A stretch of DNA of 64,000 nt from Escherichia phage BP32: sequence record OR906198.1; one strand, given 5' to 3'. The translations under genes were made by a program, and so were the position numbers. This document shows positions 55,439-62,560 of this stretch, piece after piece. Each line of letters starts with the position of its first letter. Position 1 is the first letter of the stretch. The notes under the pieces are model-generated. The model was not told where the DNA came from. It saw only the letters and a list, made by a program, of their open reading frames with translations, and did not search any database.

Positions 55439-55515
55439 GGCCCTGTAGCTCAATGGTTAGCAGCAGTCCCCTCATAAGGGAAAGGTTACCAGTTCAAATC
55501 TGGTCTGGGTCACCA
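55439..55515 (+). tRNA. tRNA with CAT anticodon (Ile-lysidine type or Met), CCA encoded
   Basis: Acceptor GGCCCTG/CTGGGTC with one mismatch; anticodon loop CTCATAA; T-loop TTCAAAT; the T4 tRNA at this position is annotated Ile. Confidence 0.7.
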
Positions 55516-55524
55516 AATTAATTA

Positions 55525-55611
55525 GGGGAGTTATCCCGTAGAGGTAGCGGTGTGGACTGTAAATCCATTGTCATTGCGACTCGGGTGGTTCGACTCCACC
55601 ACTCCCCACCA
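55525..55611 (+). tRNA. tRNA-Tyr (anticodon GTA), type II, CCA encoded
   Basis: Acceptor GGGGAGT/ACTCCCC; anticodon stem GTGGA/TCCAT, loop CTGTAAA; long variable arm; T-arm GGTGG-TTCGACT-CCACC. Confidence 0.7.
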
Positions 55612-55657
55612 ATTTATGACTCGTCGTGAGACGCTCAGTTCTTTATTAGGGACTGAT

Positions 55658-56323
55658 ATGCATTTTTATCTTTATAAAATAACAAATAAAATTAATAATA
55701 AAATTTATATTGGTGTGCATTCTACCGAAAATTTAGATGATGGATATATGGGTTCTGGTAAATTATTAAAAAGAGCCCAAGATAAGTATGGTATAGAAAA
55801 TTTTTCTAAAGAAATATTAGAGTATTTTGATGATAAAGAATCTATGCTTGAAGCCGAGAAAAATATTGTCACAGAAGAGTTTTTAAATAGACCAGATGTG
55901 TATAATTTAAAACTTGGCGGTGAAGGTGGATGGGACCATATAAATATTCCTGGGATGCTAAACCAGAAGAAAGATGCTAGCTTAAAAGGAGCTAAATCGT
56001 TTAAATCACGTTTTGAAAATGATATTTTACTTCAAGAAAAATATCGTAAAATTGGTTCAAATGTATTTAAACGTTTGTGGTCAACTCCTGAATACAAGGA
56101 AAAATTTTTAAATAATAGCAGATTTTTAAATAAGCATCATACTCCTGAAACTATTAATAAAATGAAAGAAATTCACGCTAAAAATAATCATCAGAAAGGA
56201 GAAAAGAATTCCCAATTTGGTATGATGTGGATTCATTCATTAGATGAAAAAGTTTCTAAACGTATTAAGAAAACTGACCCAATTCCAGAAGGATGGTTTA
56301 AAGGTCGAAAAATGAAATTTTAA
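55658..56323 (+). CDS. segB: GIY-YIG homing endonuclease (SegB-like) inside the tRNA cluster
   Basis: N-terminal GIY-YIG module YLYKITNKINNKIYIGVHS...GYMGSGKLL; start placed at the ATG (55658) after tRNA-Tyr, not the track's 55550 which overlaps the tRNA. Confidence 0.75.
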   Translation: MHFYLYKITNKINNKIYIGVHSTENLDDGYMGSGKLLKRAQDKYGIENFSKEILEYFDDKESMLEAEKNIVTEEFLNRPDVYNLKLGGEGGWDHINIPGMLNQKKDASLKGAKSFKSRFENDILLQEKYRKIGSNVFKRLWSTPEYKEKFLNNSRFLNKHHTPETINKMKEIHAKNNHQKGEKNSQFGMMWIHSLDEKVSKRIKKTDPIPEGWFKGRKMKF

Positions 56324-56326
56324 TTA

Positions 56327-56402
56327 CGGGGCATAGCTCAGAAGGAAGAGCAAGGACCTTCTAAGTCCTAGGTCGTAGGTTCGATCCCTACTGCCTCGAC
56401 CA
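56327..56402 (+). tRNA. tRNA-Arg (anticodon TCT), CCA encoded
   Basis: Acceptor CGGGGCA/TGCCTCG; anticodon stem AGGAC/GTCCT, loop CTTCTAA; T-loop TTCGATC. Confidence 0.85.
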
Positions 56403-56418
56403 ATTAAGTGAGGAAAAT

Positions 56419-56769
56419 ATGAAAGGTAATGTTTATTTAGTAGTTCATGATTTAACATTCTATTTTAATCACAATGATACTGTTATTTCTGAACGTGTAA
56501 TTAATTTACTTTATCAGCATGCAGATTATGTTTATGTCGAAAACGAATACGGTCATTGGCAATTTCTCAAAAATCGTTCATTTGGTTTAGATGGTTACGA
56601 ATATTTTGAACGTAAAGACCTTTTAGATAAAATTCCGTTATCTACACAATATCAAAATCATAAGTCTTTATATAAATGCCGTCCAATTCGAAATGCTGAA
56701 TCTGCGTATGAAGCAATTGATTTATGGCGTAAACGCCGTGAACAGATTGATGCATTAAAAGAATATTAA
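56419..56769 (+). CDS. hypothetical protein (116 aa)
   Basis: ORF with RBS GAGGAAAA; no recognisable motif. Confidence 0.5.
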   Translation: MKGNVYLVVHDLTFYFNHNDTVISERVINLLYQHADYVYVENEYGHWQFLKNRSFGLDGYEYFERKDLLDKIPLSTQYQNHKSLYKCRPIRNAESAYEAIDLWRKRREQIDALKEY

Positions 56770-57079
56770 GAAGCCGGGTCGCTACCGGTAAGTCGTCGGA
56801 CTGATGTTCCCTGGGTAAGGACTGGCATTAACAAATCTTTACGATCTGTTAATGTCCCCTTACATCACAGCAGAAACGGCGCACCGAATTATCGATTCGA
56901 GGAAATATCTTTGCCGTAAGCCGAGTAGCGTTTTTGACGGAACGTTCGGATATGGTCGAGATATGGCCTTTTAAAATATTGAGTAGCGTCAACTGCTTAA
57001 TAACCGGGTTCGAATCCCGGCGTTTCGTACAAACACTTGCCTTAGCAGGTGGAACCCCGACAAGGTTGCCGCAAGGCTT
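56770..57079 (+). ncRNA. candidate stable small RNA(s), possibly the T4 species 1/2 (rnaC/rnaD) equivalents
   Basis: About 310 nt, GC-richer than surroundings, no convincing ORF; tRNA-like T-arm CCGGG-TTCGAAT-CCCGG; internal repeat GAGTAGCGT; ends at a strong terminator; lies just after tRNA-Arg as in T4. Confidence 0.35.
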
Positions 57080-57107
57080 AGCCCCAGCCGAAAGGTTGGG
57101 GCTTTTT
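57080..57107 (+). terminator. rho-independent terminator agccccagcc-gaaa-ggttggggct followed by TTTTT
   Basis: 10-bp stem, GNRA loop, T-tract read directly. Confidence 0.65.
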
Positions 57108-57240
57108 GATATCTAGGCCTTTCTGGACCTCTCTAGGCATCATTTAGTTTATACCCTTTATAATATATTATCCTATCCTTTAATTGCCCATCCCTGCCCT
57201 AGAATTCCCTAAAACTTTTTAAAAATTTTTTCACAAAACT

Positions 57241-57270
57241 GTTTACACCCTTGTCATTCCATGGTACTAT
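57241..57270 (+). promoter_or_regulatory. T4-type early promoter (GTTTAC-N18-TACTAT) with A/T-rich upstream element
   Basis: Same architecture and flanking words (ttcacaaa..gtttaca..tactat..atcaactactga) as the promoters at 53016 and 53346. Confidence 0.5.
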
Positions 57271-57312
57271 ACAACTATCAACTACTGATACAAAAACAAC
57301 TTGGAGAATGAA

Positions 57313-57576
57313 ATGGATAATTACGGCGAACTGTTCAACTTCTTTATGAAATGCGTTTCAGAAGATTTCGGTCGTACAGTGAATGATATTAAAGTTATCG
57401 GTCCTGATCATCCGATGTTTGAAACTTACGCAGTAATGGGTAATGAAGATGGTCAGTGGTATACTGTAAAGGTTGTGATTAACATGTTCACTGCTGAAGG
57501 TTATGTTAAACTGTCTTCTAAAGTTTACCATGATAACGACGAAATCGCAGAAGAATATTTTAATAATATGAAATAA
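57313..57576 (+). CDS. hypothetical protein (87 aa)
   Basis: ATG with GGAG RBS; the track's TTG start at 57301 is less likely. Confidence 0.55.
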   Translation: MDNYGELFNFFMKCVSEDFGRTVNDIKVIGPDHPMFETYAVMGNEDGQWYTVKVVINMFTAEGYVKLSSKVYHDNDEIAEEYFNNMK

Positions 57577-57606
57577 GTTTACATAGGCTCATGATTGAGA
57601 TATTAT
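57577..57606 (+). promoter_or_regulatory. candidate early promoter (GTTTAC-N18-TATTAT)
   Basis: Read directly upstream of the ORF at 57632. Confidence 0.4.
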
Positions 57607-57631
57607 GAGCCTATAATTTGAGGAAACTGTT

Positions 57632-58162
57632 ATGTCTCTTTATACCGAACTGAATGAAACTTCCGAAAAATCTTTTGATGGTATCTTATCAATAATGCAA
57701 AAGCAGGTATTAGAACAGCTTAGTGAAGCCGCAAGCAACGGACATAAGGCTTGTCGAATCCCAAGCCCACATCGTCGCCTGTATGAACGCCCTCTTATTA
57801 ATTGGCTAGAAAGCGAAGGTCTTACGGTTAAGATTTGTCCTGCCAAATTTGATATCCCACGTATTCTTAATATTTACTGGGATAAACCGATTGAGAAACC
57901 GATTGAGAAAAGTGACCCTTGGGTTGTTAATGTAAAAACATATGATAATGGATGCTCACTTGAGGTGTCTGCTGTAATTAAAGGCACTCACGGTGAAAAA
58001 TCGTGGGGTTGGCCTGGTAAAGATAAAGAAATCGTGTTAAGTGTAAAAGCTACTAGTATTAGTACTCCTATAGCTAAAAGCATTATCGCCGCCGCTGTTG
58101 AAGAAGCTGAACGAATTTGTAAAATTAAAAATAGTTTACATCTCTTAAATAGCATGATATAA
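57632..58162 (+). CDS. hypothetical protein (176 aa) with in-frame KPIEKPIEK tandem repeat
   Basis: ORF with RBS GAGGAAA; 12-bp tandem duplication at 57887-57910. Confidence 0.6.
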   Translation: MSLYTELNETSEKSFDGILSIMQKQVLEQLSEAASNGHKACRIPSPHRRLYERPLINWLESEGLTVKICPAKFDIPRILNIYWDKPIEKPIEKSDPWVVNVKTYDNGCSLEVSAVIKGTHGEKSWGWPGKDKEIVLSVKATSISTPIAKSIIAAAVEEAERICKIKNSLHLLNSMI

Positions 58163-58205
58163 TTCTTCCACAGATTTTAATTTTTAATCAACCTAAGGAA
58201 ATACT

Positions 58206-58799
58206 ATGAACACACTGAAGAAAATTGTTGAGTTTATTCGCACTAAACTTGGTTCTGCTATGGCTAAAAATCTATCTGTTGAAGAACAGTATACTGCTGC
58301 AGCAGCAAAACTACTTGATAAAATTAAAGATCTAAAAACTGCTTCTGTTAAATCTATTAATGAAGAAAAACGTATTCGTGAACTTGTTATCGAAAAGAAT
58401 CGACAGGCCGAATCAAAAGAGCGTGAAATTCGTAAACTTCTTTCCGAAGGTCAAGATGTAACAATGCATGCTAAACTCGGTTTGCTATATCGTCGAACAG
58501 CTGAGCAGTTGACTACTAAAGCTGATGGTTATGCTGAAATGCGAATTGAAATCGCCAAGAAAGTAGTTGAGTTAGATGATGCTCGTCAAGAACTTGCGGT
58601 TAAATTGGAATATATCCGTGAAACTCGTGCGGCAAATGCCCTTGGAATTAGTACTGCCGATGATGTAGTTGAAATCGCAGCACTGACTAAAGTTGATATT
58701 GAAGATACTCTTGCTCGAGTTGAAACCTTTAACGGTAATATTTCTGGGGTTGAAACTACCTCTGCCGATGTTCAGGAATACATTAATTCTCTGAAATAA
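58206..58799 (+). CDS. hypothetical coiled-coil protein (197 aa)
   Basis: ORF with RBS AAGGAAA; heptad-rich, charged; followed by a terminator. Confidence 0.6.
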
Positions 58800-58803
58800 T
58801 GAT

Positions 58804-58825
58804 AAGGGGCTTCGGCCCCTTATAC
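58804..58825 (+). terminator. hairpin aaggggc-ttcg-gcccctt
   Basis: UUCG-loop stem read directly after the stop codon. Confidence 0.55.
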
Positions 58826-58840
58826 TTGGAGTAAATAGGA

Positions 58841-59455
58841 ATGAAAATGAAAATGCAAAGTGATTTCAATTCAATGTTTGAAGAGTTCCAAAGACAGGTT
58901 GATGTTCCAGACCAATTACTAAATGCTCTTAAACGTATGGCAGAAGGACGTAATTACTATTGGGGGTCTTCATATGAAACTGATGAAAGTCTTTCTGGAA
59001 GATTTTCTAGAGGTAAAAAGTCTTTAATACGTCCTGGAATACTCATTAACAGTATTGAATCAATTCATTCATTGACGTGTGATTTTGATGTTGAATTTAC
59101 TGATTTCATTTCTCCTGAATGGACAGTTTGTTATTTAAATGACGATTATGATTATCTTGGCGTTTATAGTTTAAGTGACGCATGGTTTAAACGTAATTTA
59201 CAAAAGTCAAATTTATTTTATATTGATACTACGGTAAAATTTCAGGGAAAGAAATATTTCTTTACTCTTATAGTTGACTCTGAAACAAAATATGAAAATA
59301 AGCGTATTCTTAATAAAAGGAATATCTTGACTATTATTGATGATCTTTTTGATAAATTCGTGGAAAATCCCAATTTTGAAAGCGATTTATTACTAGAAAA
59401 ATTTGTTAAGGAATGTAGAGAATATGTCAAAGCCATCACTATACCTTCCAAGTAA
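58841..59455 (+). CDS. hypothetical protein (204 aa), first member of a C-terminal ..FV.ECR.. family
   Basis: ORF with RBS; C-terminus EKFVKECREYVK. Confidence 0.6.
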   Translation: MKMKMQSDFNSMFEEFQRQVDVPDQLLNALKRMAEGRNYYWGSSYETDESLSGRFSRGKKSLIRPGILINSIESIHSLTCDFDVEFTDFISPEWTVCYLNDDYDYLGVYSLSDAWFKRNLQKSNLFYIDTTVKFQGKKYFFTLIVDSETKYENKRILNKRNILTIIDDLFDKFVENPNFESDLLLEKFVKECREYVKAITIPSK

Positions 59456-59804
59456 ACCTTTGAAGTATGAACCAAAGCACCAGATAATTTCTACCGATGT
59501 ATTAATGGGTCCTGTTGTAGTTGTATCATTTATAGCTGGAATGGTTATAGACGTTATGACTGCTAATAAATTTGATGTAATATTTGTGTCAACACTAATT
59601 CTTCCAATGATAGTTCCATTTTTATTAGTACCTGTAAATTGGGTAGGATACTGGTATCAAGGAAGACATTATCGTAAACGCGTACGTGAATGGAAAGCTC
59701 AGTGTAAAAAGATTAAAAAGGAACACCAGCTTAAACTAGATATGTATGAATTTAACGAAATTATGAAATTTGTTAAGGAATCACGATGCAAAAGCCAAAA
59801 CTAA
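59424..59804 (+). CDS. small membrane protein (start uncertain: 59403, 59424 or 59505)
   Basis: Two hydrophobic helices; C-terminus KFVKESRCK related to neighbours. Confidence 0.45.
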   Translation: MSKPSLYLPSKPLKYEPKHQIISTDVLMGPVVVVSFIAGMVIDVMTANKFDVIFVSTLILPMIVPFLLVPVNWVGYWYQGRHYRKRVREWKAQCKKIKKEHQLKLDMYEFNEIMKFVKESRCKSQN

Positions 59805-60148
59805 ATAAAGTCAAATATTCGTTTCCTGAGGTATTATTAATTCTTGCCGTATCAGTATTTGCAGCTCTTGCGGGTAGTCTTATTGGATTAATGATTGATT
59901 GTATTATTTTAAACATCGATGGTTCAGCAATTATAACAGAGGTTTGGAGTGAACTTCGTTTTACTATAGCGATTTCATTATTTTCATTCTTTGGCACTAT
60001 ACTATATTTTCATTATGATAATTTTAACATAAATTGGCAAAGAAAAAAGGATTACAAAATACAATTAAAAGAATACAATAGCTACATGTCTTATATTGAA
60101 AATGAATCAATGAAAGAGTTTGTGAGCGATTGCAGGAAAATTAAATGA
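59786..60148 (+). CDS. small membrane protein (120 aa)
   Basis: Two hydrophobic helices; C-terminus KEFVSDCRKIK; ATGA-type overlaps with both neighbours. Confidence 0.55.
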   Translation: MQKPKLNKVKYSFPEVLLILAVSVFAALAGSLIGLMIDCIILNIDGSAIITEVWSELRFTIAISLFSFFGTILYFHYDNFNINWQRKKDYKIQLKEYNSYMSYIENESMKEFVSDCRKIK

Positions 60149-60633
60149 TTTTAAAAACTCGCTGGTATGATTTAGATGATGGGGATGATGGCATTTCAGT
60201 TGATAGAGTTGACTGGAATGGCTGTTCCGAAGATATGAAAAATTTGTTGATTAGGGAGTTTAGAATGGGATATCAACCAGTTAAGCCATCTACTGCAACA
60301 GATGATAAATTCGTGTGTATTTATAATGGTCGCGCTAAGTTAACGAACGCTGATTGGTTCACAGATAAGATTATGATTCTGTGGTATATTATTAGTCTTC
60401 CTGTGACATCATTCGTATTTTACTTTTTTATAAAAAATCCAATGGACAGAATAGGAGATTGGATTCTTTTAACCATACTTGTTAATATTTTTACAGCAGC
60501 AATATTATCTGGGATATGGTACACGTTCATTGAAATGCCATGGCGGCTACGCAGACAACAAAAGATTTTTGATGAAAAGAAATATACTCAAAATTTAAAT
60601 AACTTTATCACTGAATGCAGGAAATTAAAATGA
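60145..60633 (+). CDS. small membrane protein (162 aa)
   Basis: Hydrophobic helices; C-terminus NNFITECRKLK; ATGA overlap with the previous gene. Confidence 0.55.
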   Translation: MILKTRWYDLDDGDDGISVDRVDWNGCSEDMKNLLIREFRMGYQPVKPSTATDDKFVCIYNGRAKLTNADWFTDKIMILWYIISLPVTSFVFYFFIKNPMDRIGDWILLTILVNIFTAAILSGIWYTFIEMPWRLRRQQKIFDEKKYTQNLNNFITECRKLK

Positions 60634-61070
60634 AAACATTATCGGCTGGTATTATCTTTATGACAGAAGATAAAGATTTATTTATGGGTCGGGTTACTGG
60701 TTCTCGTAAGCCTGGAATGATGGCACATCGCTGGGATATCCCAAAGGGCCGCGTAGAAAATTCTGATTTAAACGCACTAGATGCAGCACGAAGAGAATGT
60801 TTAGAAGAGACTGGTTTTAGCAATTATAATCCAGACCTTCTAGAAGACCTAGGTGTATTTAAATATTCTAGTAATAAAGACTTACAGTTATTTTATTATA
60901 CGATTCCAGTAGAGCATGAGATGTTTAGAAATTGCCATTGCGAGTCTTATTTTGAAAATAAAGATGGCGTTATGATTCCAGAGATGGATGCTTTTGCTCT
61001 TATTCCTCGTACTCAGTGGCAATATGTGATGGGTCCTTCACTTTACCGAATAATGAACAGCCTCTTTTAA
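60615..61070 (+). CDS. nudE: Nudix hydrolase NudE
   Basis: 151 aa as in T4 NudE; Nudix box GRVENSDLNALDAARRECLEETG; alternative start at 60630. Confidence 0.8.
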   Translation: MQEIKMKTLSAGIIFMTEDKDLFMGRVTGSRKPGMMAHRWDIPKGRVENSDLNALDAARRECLEETGFSNYNPDLLEDLGVFKYSSNKDLQLFYYTIPVEHEMFRNCHCESYFENKDGVMIPEMDAFALIPRTQWQYVMGPSLYRIMNSLF

Positions 61071-61601
<531 letters not shown>

Positions 61602-61605
61602 AGTG

Positions 61606-61635
61606 GTTTACTTTCTCCTAGAATTGTGATAGTAT
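61606..61635 (+). promoter_or_regulatory. T4-type early promoter (GTTTAC-N18-TAGTAT with TG)
   Basis: Read directly upstream of denV. Confidence 0.5.
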
Positions 61636-61660
61636 ATTCACAGTTACTTGGAGGGATAAA

Positions 61661-62077
61661 ATGACTCGTATTAATTTGACTTTAGTATCTGAACTTGCTG
61701 ATCAACATTTAATCGCAGAATACCGTGAATTGCCACGCGTTTTTGGTATAGTTCGTAAACACGTGGCAAATGGTAAGCGGGTTAAAGATTTTAAAATATC
61801 TTCCGAGTTTATTTTAGGTTCTGGTCATGTTACGTTCTTTTACGACAAGTTAGAATTTTTGCGAAAGCGTCAATCAGACATTATAATGGAATGCTTAAAA
61901 CGTGGGTTTAGTATAAAAGATACTGAAGTTCCTGACATCAGCGATATTCCAGCAGAATGGAAAAATGATTATAATCCATGCAAATCAGCTATTAAATTGA
62001 GTCAACAACGACTCGATAAAAAAATTTTAATGAAGCCACACTGGTACAAGTATTACGGCAAAAATATTTACATTTAA
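61661..62077 (+). CDS. denV: endonuclease V (pyrimidine dimer DNA glycosylase)
   Basis: 138 aa; N-terminus [17 protein letters not shown]...[10 protein letters not shown] matches T4 endonuclease V as recalled. Confidence 0.93.
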
Positions 62078-62086
62078 AGGAAACAT

Positions 62087-62560
62087 ATGAAAACATATCA
62101 AGAATTTATCACTGAAGCAGCTATTAATTCTCAAATTATTGCTGAATCTTTTACTGATCTTTTGAAATTTAAAAAAGGTCAAAAAATCACTGCTGTATTG
62201 GATGATGGTACAGAAGTTGAGATGGATGTACAGGGATATAATTATGCAGTAGATGGAAAACTGTATAATAAATCCCATGCTAAATTTGATTCATTTGACG
62301 ACTTTGTTAATACAGTTGAAGATGAAAAAACTCGTAGATCAATTTCAACTGGTGATGCTAAGGTTCTTATGGCACACGGTCATGAACGTATTCGCGCTAA
62401 ACAGAATAAAATGGGTGAAGATAATTTCGCATTAGTTGGTTATCAATCTGGTAAACAAACTTATGGCTATCAGCGTACTGCTACCATGTATAATAAAAAT
62501 GGTAAAATCGCTTTCGTGAATAGTAAAGGTTCTATTCAGTACGTCAAATCATTCAAATAA
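62087..62560 (+). CDS. internal protein (ipII/ipIII-type) with capsid targeting sequence
   Basis: N-terminus MKTYQEFITEA matches the T4 capsid targeting sequence consensus MKTYQEFIAE; 157 aa, basic. Confidence 0.65.
   Translation: MKTYQEFITEAAINSQIIAESFTDLLKFKKGQKITAVLDDGTEVEMDVQGYNYAVDGKLYNKSHAKFDSFDDFVNTVEDEKTRRSISTGDAKVLMAHGHERIRAKQNKMGEDNFALVGYQSGKQTYGYQRTATMYNKNGKIAFVNSKGSIQYVKSFK

Follow-up and report, generated by a model that had tools for sequence, protein, structure and literature searches.

A short C-terminal peptide motif shared by the e.5, e.4, e.3, and e.2 proteins in the early gene array of a T4-type Escherichia phage

We analyzed four consecutive plus-strand genes of Escherichia phage BP32 (sequence record OR906198.1), located at positions 58,841 to 60,633 of a 64,000-nucleotide (nt) stretch referred to here as the window, whose protein products end in related C-terminal sequences. 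The whole 64-kb window was assigned to Tequatrovirus, and over the region 58700-60700 it shares 98.7% identity with Escherichia phage HY01 and 90-99% with ~500 T4-like genomes. By position and sequence, the four open reading frames (ORFs) are the orthologues of T4 e.5, e.4, e.3, and e.2 (Table 1). Indeed, the T4 counterparts align with the window proteins end to end, the location between e.6 and nudE/e matches, and the order e.6, e.5, e.4, e.3, e.2, nudE, e is common to the window and T4, with denV also found 3′ of the array. The four genes, with the C-termini quoted in a preliminary description of this DNA, are all present exactly as written there. They belong to four separate PHROG families (2607, 2604, 2330, and 2203), the profiles of which are covered entirely with E-values of 1e-57 to 1e-109, and these are catalogued families without known function. 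Searches of local Pfam and NCBIfam libraries returned no match for e.5, e.4, e.3, or e.2, and no functional annotation was obtained for them from Pfam, NCBIfam, or PHROGs. Precomputed assignments in the protein database place PF26876 on relatives 96% identical to e.5 and PF26896 on close homologues of e.2. The comparisons below show that the four genes are united by a short C-terminal peptide rather than by a common fold.

To describe this peptide, the strict pattern [FW][IV].[ED]C[RK] was searched in every ORF of 40 or more amino acids (aa) in the six reading frames of the window (~45,000 aa). Three matches were found, and all three are the C-termini of e.5, e.3, and e.2. The e.4 tail is a variant, FVKESRCK, with Ser at the motif Cys position and a Cys two residues further on, so that the motif previously proposed for all four proteins stands in its strict form for three of them and in altered form for e.4. 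When the composition of the individual proteins is taken into account, a loose match within the last 25 residues has a probability of 3-5e-4 per protein, and the joint chance of the four tails is ~1.7e-14, a value calculated for a pattern that was defined after seeing the data; independent data from related phages therefore weigh more than this number. When the entire T4 genome is considered, the pattern lies close to a C-terminus only in e.5, in e.3, in a remnant of e.2 that is out of frame, and in tk, whose match (YVSLCRK) was taken to be unrelated. The remnant arises from T4's own e.2 (NC_000866, 67475-67960), which is truncated at 102 aa, its C-terminal part, including FITECRKLK, surviving out of frame in a 160-bp "gap" before nudE. 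Hence, the reference T4 gene is a disrupted copy, and the window carries an intact one.

The related phages were represented by 39 loci, 34 of them anchored on e.6 and taken from IMG/VR and five from annotated phage regions, with ORFs called by a first-ATG heuristic. The looser pattern [FWY][IVL]..C[RK], searched in the plus-strand genes of these loci plus the window (126,520 aa), gave 137 matches, of which 134 lie at most 20 residues from the C-terminus and 60 at most three. Together with the three strict matches in the window, this shows the motif to be non-random and C-terminal. The consensus reads hydrophobic(-3), acidic or Asn(-2), x, F(0), I/V(+1), x, x, C(+4), R/K(+5), and the Cys-Arg pair is nearly invariant among the aligned carriers. 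Columns -3 and -2 constitute independent support because they lie outside the search pattern. The spacing of positions -3, 0, +1, and +4 corresponds to a single helix face. In a second tail class, position +4 is occupied by Ile, Val, Met, or Ser; this class comprises the e.4 family (FVKE[SIV]R) and the families F18 (FIQGIR), F89 (FLKEIR), and F95 (FVMEMR).

Broader searches led back to the same phages. When the whole of IMG/VR was scanned at the DNA level with a single codon version of the tail, the real ORFs recovered all lay on contigs also returned by an e.6 scan (~120-170 kb, plus one 3.6-kb fragment), and all remaining matches ended ORFs of at most 38 aa, as chance predicts. A 47-column tail profile searched against 5.8 billion proteins, with a reach limited by the word index, gave seven matches, which came from T4-type phages or short contigs. 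The e.5 profile searched against 1.84 billion representatives gave five matches, one full-length (201 aa) and four shorter ones covering the profile in part, and no cellular relative hinting at a function was found among these representatives.

Table 1 Features of the e.6-to-nudE region of the window and positions of the tail motif (coordinates in nt of the window unless given as aa; E, expectation value).
Feature	Position	Strand	Description
Sigma-70-type promoter-like site, upstream of e.6	58135..58163	+	TTTACA-17-TATAAT with TG; 11/12 consensus, best in the 55500-61700 scan
e.6 orthologue, 197 aa	58206..58799	+	PHROG 1203, E 1.6e-87; no membrane helix predicted
GC-rich hairpin between e.6 and e.5	58802..58823	.	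ATAAGGGGC-TTCG-GCCCCTTAT
e.5 orthologue, soluble, 204 aa	58841..59455	+	PHROG 2607, E 1e-109; C-terminus ...EKFVKECREYVKAITIPSK
e.5 tail FVKECR, aa 188-193, 11 residues before the C-terminus	59402..59419	+	Codons include the e.4 Shine-Dalgarno AAGGAA
e.4 orthologue, 126 aa counted from ATG	59424..59804	+	PHROG 2604, E 8.5e-63; C-terminus ...MKFVKESRCKSQN
e.4 predicted membrane helices	aa 26-44 (59499-59555), aa 52-70 (59577-59633)	+	Kyte-Doolittle
e.4 variant tail FVKESR then CK, aa 116-121	59769..59786	+	Ser in place of Cys
e.3 orthologue, 120 aa	59786..60148	+	PHROG 2330, E 5.9e-57; C-terminus ...KEFVSDCRKIK
e.3 predicted membrane helices	aa 16-34 (59831-59887), aa 57-75 (59954-60010)	+	Kyte-Doolittle
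e.3 tail FVSDCR, aa 112-117, 3 residues before the C-terminus	60119..60136	+	Sequence
e.2 orthologue, intact, 162 aa	60145..60633	+	PHROG 2203, E 3.2e-79; C-terminus ...NNFITECRKLK
e.2 predicted membrane helices	aa 78-96 (60376-60432), aa 106-124 (60460-60516)	+	Kyte-Doolittle
e.2 tail FITECR, aa 154-159	60604..60621	+	F154, I155, C158, R159 invariant in the family alignment
nudE (Nudix hydrolase), downstream of the array	60630..61070	+	Pfam NUDIX, E 1.9e-13
Motif position -3			Hydrophobic: L 58, F 20, I 18, V 12, M 6 of 125 aligned carriers
Motif position -2			E, N, or D in aligned carriers
Motif position 0			F in aligned carriers
Motif position +1			I or V in aligned carriers
Motif position +4			C in aligned carriers
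Motif position +5			R, rarely K, in aligned carriers

We then compared the protein bodies with and without their tails. When trimmed of their tails, the Cys-type carriers formed 21 BLAST clusters, of which 14 have membrane helices and 7 do not. In the BLAST families obtained by full-length clustering, the tail is kept by every member (24/24 for e.2, 19/19 for e.3, 11/11 for F27, 8/8 for F40, and 7/7 for F46), and in the e.2 family, whose members are 21-46% identical, C27, G42, F154, I155, C158, and R159 are the sole invariant columns. Cross-hits between the hidden Markov models (HMMs) of different families were present with the tail and gone once the tails were trimmed. By tail-trimmed hhalign, e.2 and e.5 match none of the other three window genes, and the e.3 and e.4 bodies show a weak profile similarity (probability 76%, E 2e-5). 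Beyond the window, e.5 matches F9, an e.5-type family of other genera (probability 93%), and two further weak pairs, e4/F112 and F89/F45, reach 54-61%, with no other pair at or above 40%.

The preliminary description had seen in these genes a single, locally amplified family. The tail-trimmed profile, BLAST, and HMM results do not bear this out: a locally amplified family would hold at most for e.3/e.4, and the tail is a module on otherwise unrelated or unrecognisably diverged bodies. The four genes do map to T4 ORFs unrelated to one another, an outcome that the preliminary description had named as formally refuting it, yet the motif stands, because the tails are present on T4's own proteins as well.

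For membrane helices, the predictions rest on Kyte-Doolittle hydropathy only. In agreement with the hydrophobic helices reported earlier for the last three proteins, e.4, e.3, and e.2 have two each; none was found in e.5, where the maximum 19-residue mean is 0.87. The segments that follow the second membrane helix are strongly basic (e.g., YQGRHYRKRVREWK in e.4), and the N-termini are basic as well, except for that of e.2, a 75-residue acidic domain; e.2 thus combines an N-terminal soluble domain, two membrane helices, and the tail. No signal peptide was found in any of the four proteins. Based on the positive-inside rule, the basic juxtamembrane segments, the soluble nature of e.5, and the lack of signal peptides, we infer that the tails of e.4, e.3, and e.2 lie in the cytoplasm, at the inner membrane. 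The conserved cytoplasmic tail proposed earlier is conserved as described, and its cytoplasmic side is supported by the positive-inside rule. In low-confidence AlphaFold2 (AF2) models, the e.5 tail falls within helix 183-198 (mean predicted local distance difference test (pLDDT) score of 57.7), and the second membrane helix and the tail of e.2 form one helix, 103-157 (mean pLDDT of 56.4), from which we infer that the tail is helical.

The gene preceding the array, e.6, is a constant neighbor of the tail carriers. Its identity ranges from 54 to 100% across loci L007-L040, and in all 39 loci a soluble tail-bearing gene (e.5, F27, or F9) comes directly after it. Next, usually, is a two-helix gene with an aliphatic tail variant, and further carriers are scattered up to nudE, the Cys-type tails numbering 2-5 per locus; the small ORFs of the e.6-to-nudE/e block are gained and lost from genus to genus. 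Distant e.6 homologues (~30-35% identical) are found within the Straboviridae in RB43, Aeromonas phages 31 and 65.2, and IME13, and every distant e.6 examined has a motif-bearing gene 3′ of it, either immediately or, in RB43, one gene later. The tails are ...LEKFIHSCKK... in RB43 ORF268w, ...ELFVDYCRRTASKK in the neighbor of Aeromonas phage 31, ...LQDFIKECRY... and ...LRRFVNECRL... in the two carriers of Aeromonas phage 65.2, and ...IEMFVDYCRRTAPKRE in the neighbor of IME13. A Tulanevirus e.6 homologue is likewise accompanied by a motif-bearing next gene. The bodies of the Aeromonas phage and IME13 neighbors show homology to those of the F9/e.5 lineage (E 3e-10 to 2e-5 with tail-trimmed HMMs); the tail-trimmed HMM comparison detected no homology of RB43 ORF268w to this lineage (E 0.43). 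The e.6/e.5 pair with its tail is old, because body homologues are found beside e.6 in the Aeromonas phages and IME13. The membrane-anchored carriers look like a later expansion, since among the phages examined they are confined to those of enterobacteria. The sole e.6-like gene examined outside the Straboviridae, from Taipeivirus T765 (~27% identity), has a neighbor without the motif, and its product is devoid of the KK[IL]VEFIR.K N-terminus that is invariant in e.6.

Two observations concern this region in its own right. The N-terminus of e.6 (58206-58270), ILKK[IL]VEFIR.K[LF]G, hardly varies between T4 and the Aeromonas phages and resembles the tail core (hydrophobic-E-F-I-...-R). A second C-terminal Cys motif, W-[VF]-S-S-S-x-x-C-stop, characterizes the families F0 and F7, which are interleaved with the tail-bearing genes and form arrays of 3-5 small soluble paralogues in RB69-, JS98-, and Karam-type phages; it was counted in 92 genes of the 39 loci (e.g., L003 3357-4152, L004 3351-4593, L012 7700-8494, and most non-T4 loci) and has no occurrence in the window. 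We also considered e.6 as a PspA/IM30- or ESCRT-III-like protein, but rejected this identity, hhalign giving a probability of 0.3% against E. coli PspA and no Pfam, NCBIfam, or PDB match being found.

By its consensus match only, the strong sigma-70-like site upstream of e.6 is likely the early promoter of an e.6-to-nudE transcription unit. The hairpin between e.6 and e.5 is stable, with nine pairs and a 4-nt TTCG loop, and no plus-strand T-run follows the stem; a role in RNA stability or processing is likelier than one as a terminator. The start of e.5 is ambiguous (58841 or 58847). Consecutive genes overlap by 32 nt (e.5/e.4), 19 nt (e.4/e.3), 4 nt (e.3/e.2), and 4 nt (e.2/nudE); the ATGA-style overlap described earlier thus applies to the last two junctions and not to the first two. 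As each gene carries the Shine-Dalgarno sequence (AAGGAA or AGGAAA, 5-9 nt before the ATG) and the start codon of the next, the proposed translational coupling agrees with what the sequence predicts. For nudE, the start is probably the ATG at 60630 (146 aa) rather than 60615, because AGGAAA lies 6 nt upstream and an ATGA overlap is formed with the e.2 stop; T4 nudE is annotated as the 151-aa form, equivalent to a start at 60615. Outside the array, the upstream neighbor of e.6 (57632-58162) encodes 176 aa (PHROG 6869) without the tail motif, in the place of the 111-aa T4 e.7. The region 61107-62560 is rearranged relative to T4, with the order e, denV, and a 157-aa ORF (MKTYQEFITEA...), judged internal-protein-like from its N-terminus, against e, ipIII, ipII, denV in T4.

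Some data on the T4 orthologues are available. Supplementary files 4 and 6 of PMC9697503 assign the T4 e.2-e.6 RNAs to the early class and list the five proteins as detected by mass spectrometry; in that supplement the e.3 protein is classed as late-accumulating, though its RNA is early. The designation of the array products as small early membrane proteins would accordingly suit e.4, e.3, and e.2, with two predicted helices each and T4 orthologues listed there as early, but not the soluble e.5. In supplementary file 15 of PMC11879866, CRISPRi-ART knockdowns of T4 e.2-e.6 are scored "Not Fit", which we take to mean that fitness in the laboratory host is unaffected during single infection. Dispensability in laboratory E. 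coli would fit a host-specific accessory function.

Our favored explanation, which we hold tentatively and rate just short of probable, is that the tail is a helical, cytoplasmic peptide by which its carriers dock onto, or assemble with, a common partner, e.6 being the leading candidate. As a portable docking peptide, the tail would allow a changing set of early accessory proteins to bind one common partner. This set would consist of the ancient soluble e.5 type and of lineage-specific two-helix inner-membrane proteins (e.4, e.3, e.2), the membrane-anchored carriers holding the partner complex at the inner membrane; the co-conserved neighbor e.6 would be the best candidate for the partner. The near-invariant Cys-Arg pair could make a specific contact, or possibly form a metal or thiol site: the invariance of the Cys within families argues for a specific role (contact, metal ligand, or thiol chemistry), and the aliphatic tail class indicates that the scaffold can work without it. 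Several points weigh against this explanation. Four of the motif columns are fixed by the search pattern itself, and the 39 loci are phylogenetically related, so that the counts are not independent events and overstate the independent observations. The hydrophobic moment of individual tails is modest (0.40-0.49), with 5-24% of shuffles reaching the observed value. Thiol chemistry cannot be universal, since e.4-type tails have no Cys. Moreover, no recognisable domain was found in e.6 with Pfam, NCBIfam, or PDB, the conserved adjacency of e.6 and the tail carriers is circumstantial as evidence for a partner, and CRISPRi, showing no fitness effect, offers no phenotypic foothold for a mechanism.

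Whether the similarity resides in the protein or in the nucleic acid can be judged from the codons. Cys is encoded by TGT 60 times and by TGC 57 times (117 distinct nucleotide contexts), Arg by both of its codon families (AGA 34, CGT 31, AGG 21, CGC 10, CGA 9), and Phe by TTT 80 times and TTC 30 times. In the related loci, the next start codon lies anywhere between -7 and more than 300 nt from the motif, and one family can precede varied genes, e.3 being followed by e.2, nudE, or an unrelated small gene. With this free codon variation, variable start distance, and changing downstream genes, selection acts on the tail peptide and not on the DNA; the tail is a protein-level short linear motif. 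A ribosome-binding-site or DNA-repeat origin had been suspected first, from the Shine-Dalgarno sequences embedded in the motifs (AAGGAA within FVKE, AGGAAA within CRK), and was ruled out by the codon variability and the variable spacing. More generally, a nucleic-acid element, acting in ribosome binding or translational coupling of the next gene or as a recombination linker and leaving the peptide as a by-product, is scarcely tenable: in the window the next ATG does lie 0-10 nt beyond the motif, but the Shine-Dalgarno sequence sits on different motif residues in different genes, Arg moves between the AGR and CGN families, and one family retains its tail before different downstream genes. We also consider it unlikely that the array is one locally amplified family of small membrane proteins, in which the tail would represent the part that has diverged most slowly from a common ancestor rather than a functionally separable module. 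Beyond the tail-trimmed similarity of e.3 and e.4, such a family could account for the alike N-termini of this pair (MQKPKLNKVKY and MSKPSLYLPSKPLKY), for the layout of helix, helix, basic stretch, helix, and tail common to e.4, e.3, and e.2, and for 16 identical nucleotides across the motif in e.5 and e.4. However, e.5 and at least six further carrier families are soluble, with bodies unrelated to those of the membrane carriers, body similarity between other families hardly extends beyond the two weak pairs mentioned above, the family HMMs cross-hit through the tail only, and PHROGs, a remote-homology clustering, holds the four genes in separate families.

The docking reading also has to be weighed against two other roles for the peptide itself. 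It is possible, if rather unlikely, that the tails bind each other, so that soluble e.5 and the membrane proteins would assemble at the inner membrane into a hetero-oligomeric bundle of helices with no separate partner, one Cys of each chain perhaps helping to hold a bridging metal ion. Every locus has at least two Cys-type tails, usually 3-5, the Cys does not vary within families at divergences that would ordinarily let a purely hydrophobic position drift, and some e.2 relatives (L033, L039) have an extra CxCxxC cluster on the same membrane side, all of which would suit such a bundle. Conversely, a number of carriers ranging from 2 to 5 speaks against a fixed stoichiometry, Ile, Val, Met, or Ser replaces the Cys in e.4-type and F18-type tails, and a single carrier is present in the stretches around e.6 of RB43, Aeromonas phage 31, and IME13. 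The location of the motif at or near the C-terminus of early-made proteins and its nearly invariant Cys-Arg pair might also be expected of a regulatory tag, that is, a degron or a covalent modification at the Cys-Arg pair setting the lifetime or activity of early proteins. We regard this as most unlikely, as the motif lies 0-15 residues from the real C-terminus, a variable distance that argues against free-end recognition and against a degron, the Cys is absent from some tails, and the T4 e.3 protein, given its late accumulation in the PMC9697503 supplement despite an early RNA, is not obviously short-lived.

Returning to the docking peptide, a wider version of this explanation, doubtful but worth considering, would make the F-I/V-x-x-C-R tail an address tag for an e.6-centered hub throughout the Straboviridae, with e.6/e.5 as the core into which T-even phages of enterobacteria would plug interchangeable tailed effectors, membrane-anchored or soluble. 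If this were true, a block of uncharacterized T4 genes would become one modular, host-facing system. No large phage has been studied better than T4, yet roughly half of its genes, e.2-e.6 among them, are without a known function, and one tag on ~20 orphan families, tied to e.6 by gene order across the Straboviridae, turns them into a single testable unit. If the docking tag is real, phages would add accessory proteins to an existing complex via a short tail. The motif can be used as a search handle for further members in new genomes, and the 10-residue peptide is small enough to serve as bait, to be mutated at three positions, or to be grafted onto a reporter. No account of the shared tail or of its link with e.6 was found in the searchable literature, where an older T4 mention is possible, and gene-name searches found no paper discussing e.2-e.6 in running text, only supplementary tables. 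What is new here is the shared linear motif of docking-tail type; the genes are known T4 ORFs and not a new class of system.

Compared with known systems, the window genes are closest to their direct orthologues T4 e.5, e.4, e.3, and e.2, for which the T4 annotation we examined gives four separate families and does not record the shared tail; in T4 itself the e.2 tail is out of frame. T4 Imm, which like T4 Sp is a small protein excluding superinfecting phage, is likewise an early inner-membrane protein with two helices, and when the e.3 and e.4 HMMs are run against the complete T4 genome it is their top match apart from the cluster itself. This similarity was rejected as a relationship, as it amounts to ~7 bits, with hhalign probabilities of 5.5% and 0.2%, and reflects membrane-helix composition only; the Imm C-terminus (...IIIREKE) is also without the tail motif. 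T4 Sp, unlike e.2-e.5, is a secreted periplasmic protein. To our knowledge, no exclusion phenotype is known for e.2-e.5. With the ~7-bit Imm match and the "Not Fit" knockdown scores listed for the T4 orthologues, we found no evidence for the superinfection exclusion or host takeover function suggested in the preliminary description.

C-terminal docking peptides on unrelated proteins are known from the tails of T4 gp43, gp33, and gp55 that bind the sliding clamp (gp45) and from the C-terminal peptides of bacterial FtsZ and SSB. The logic is the same, a portable terminal peptide bringing differing bodies to one hub, but those motifs have another consensus without a Cys-Arg counterpart, and most of the carriers described here are membrane-anchored. 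Mimicry of the FtsZ C-terminal peptide or of clamp binding was considered and set aside, as neither the register nor the Cys-Arg pair seems to fit. Finally, T4-type phages have variable clusters of accessory genes, often called hyperplastic regions, and the e.6-to-nudE/e block shows a similar turnover of small ORFs. Unlike in a plain hyperplastic region, this turnover is constrained: many of the gained ORFs bear the tail, and a pair of the e.6/e.5 type is kept at the head of the block across the Straboviridae.

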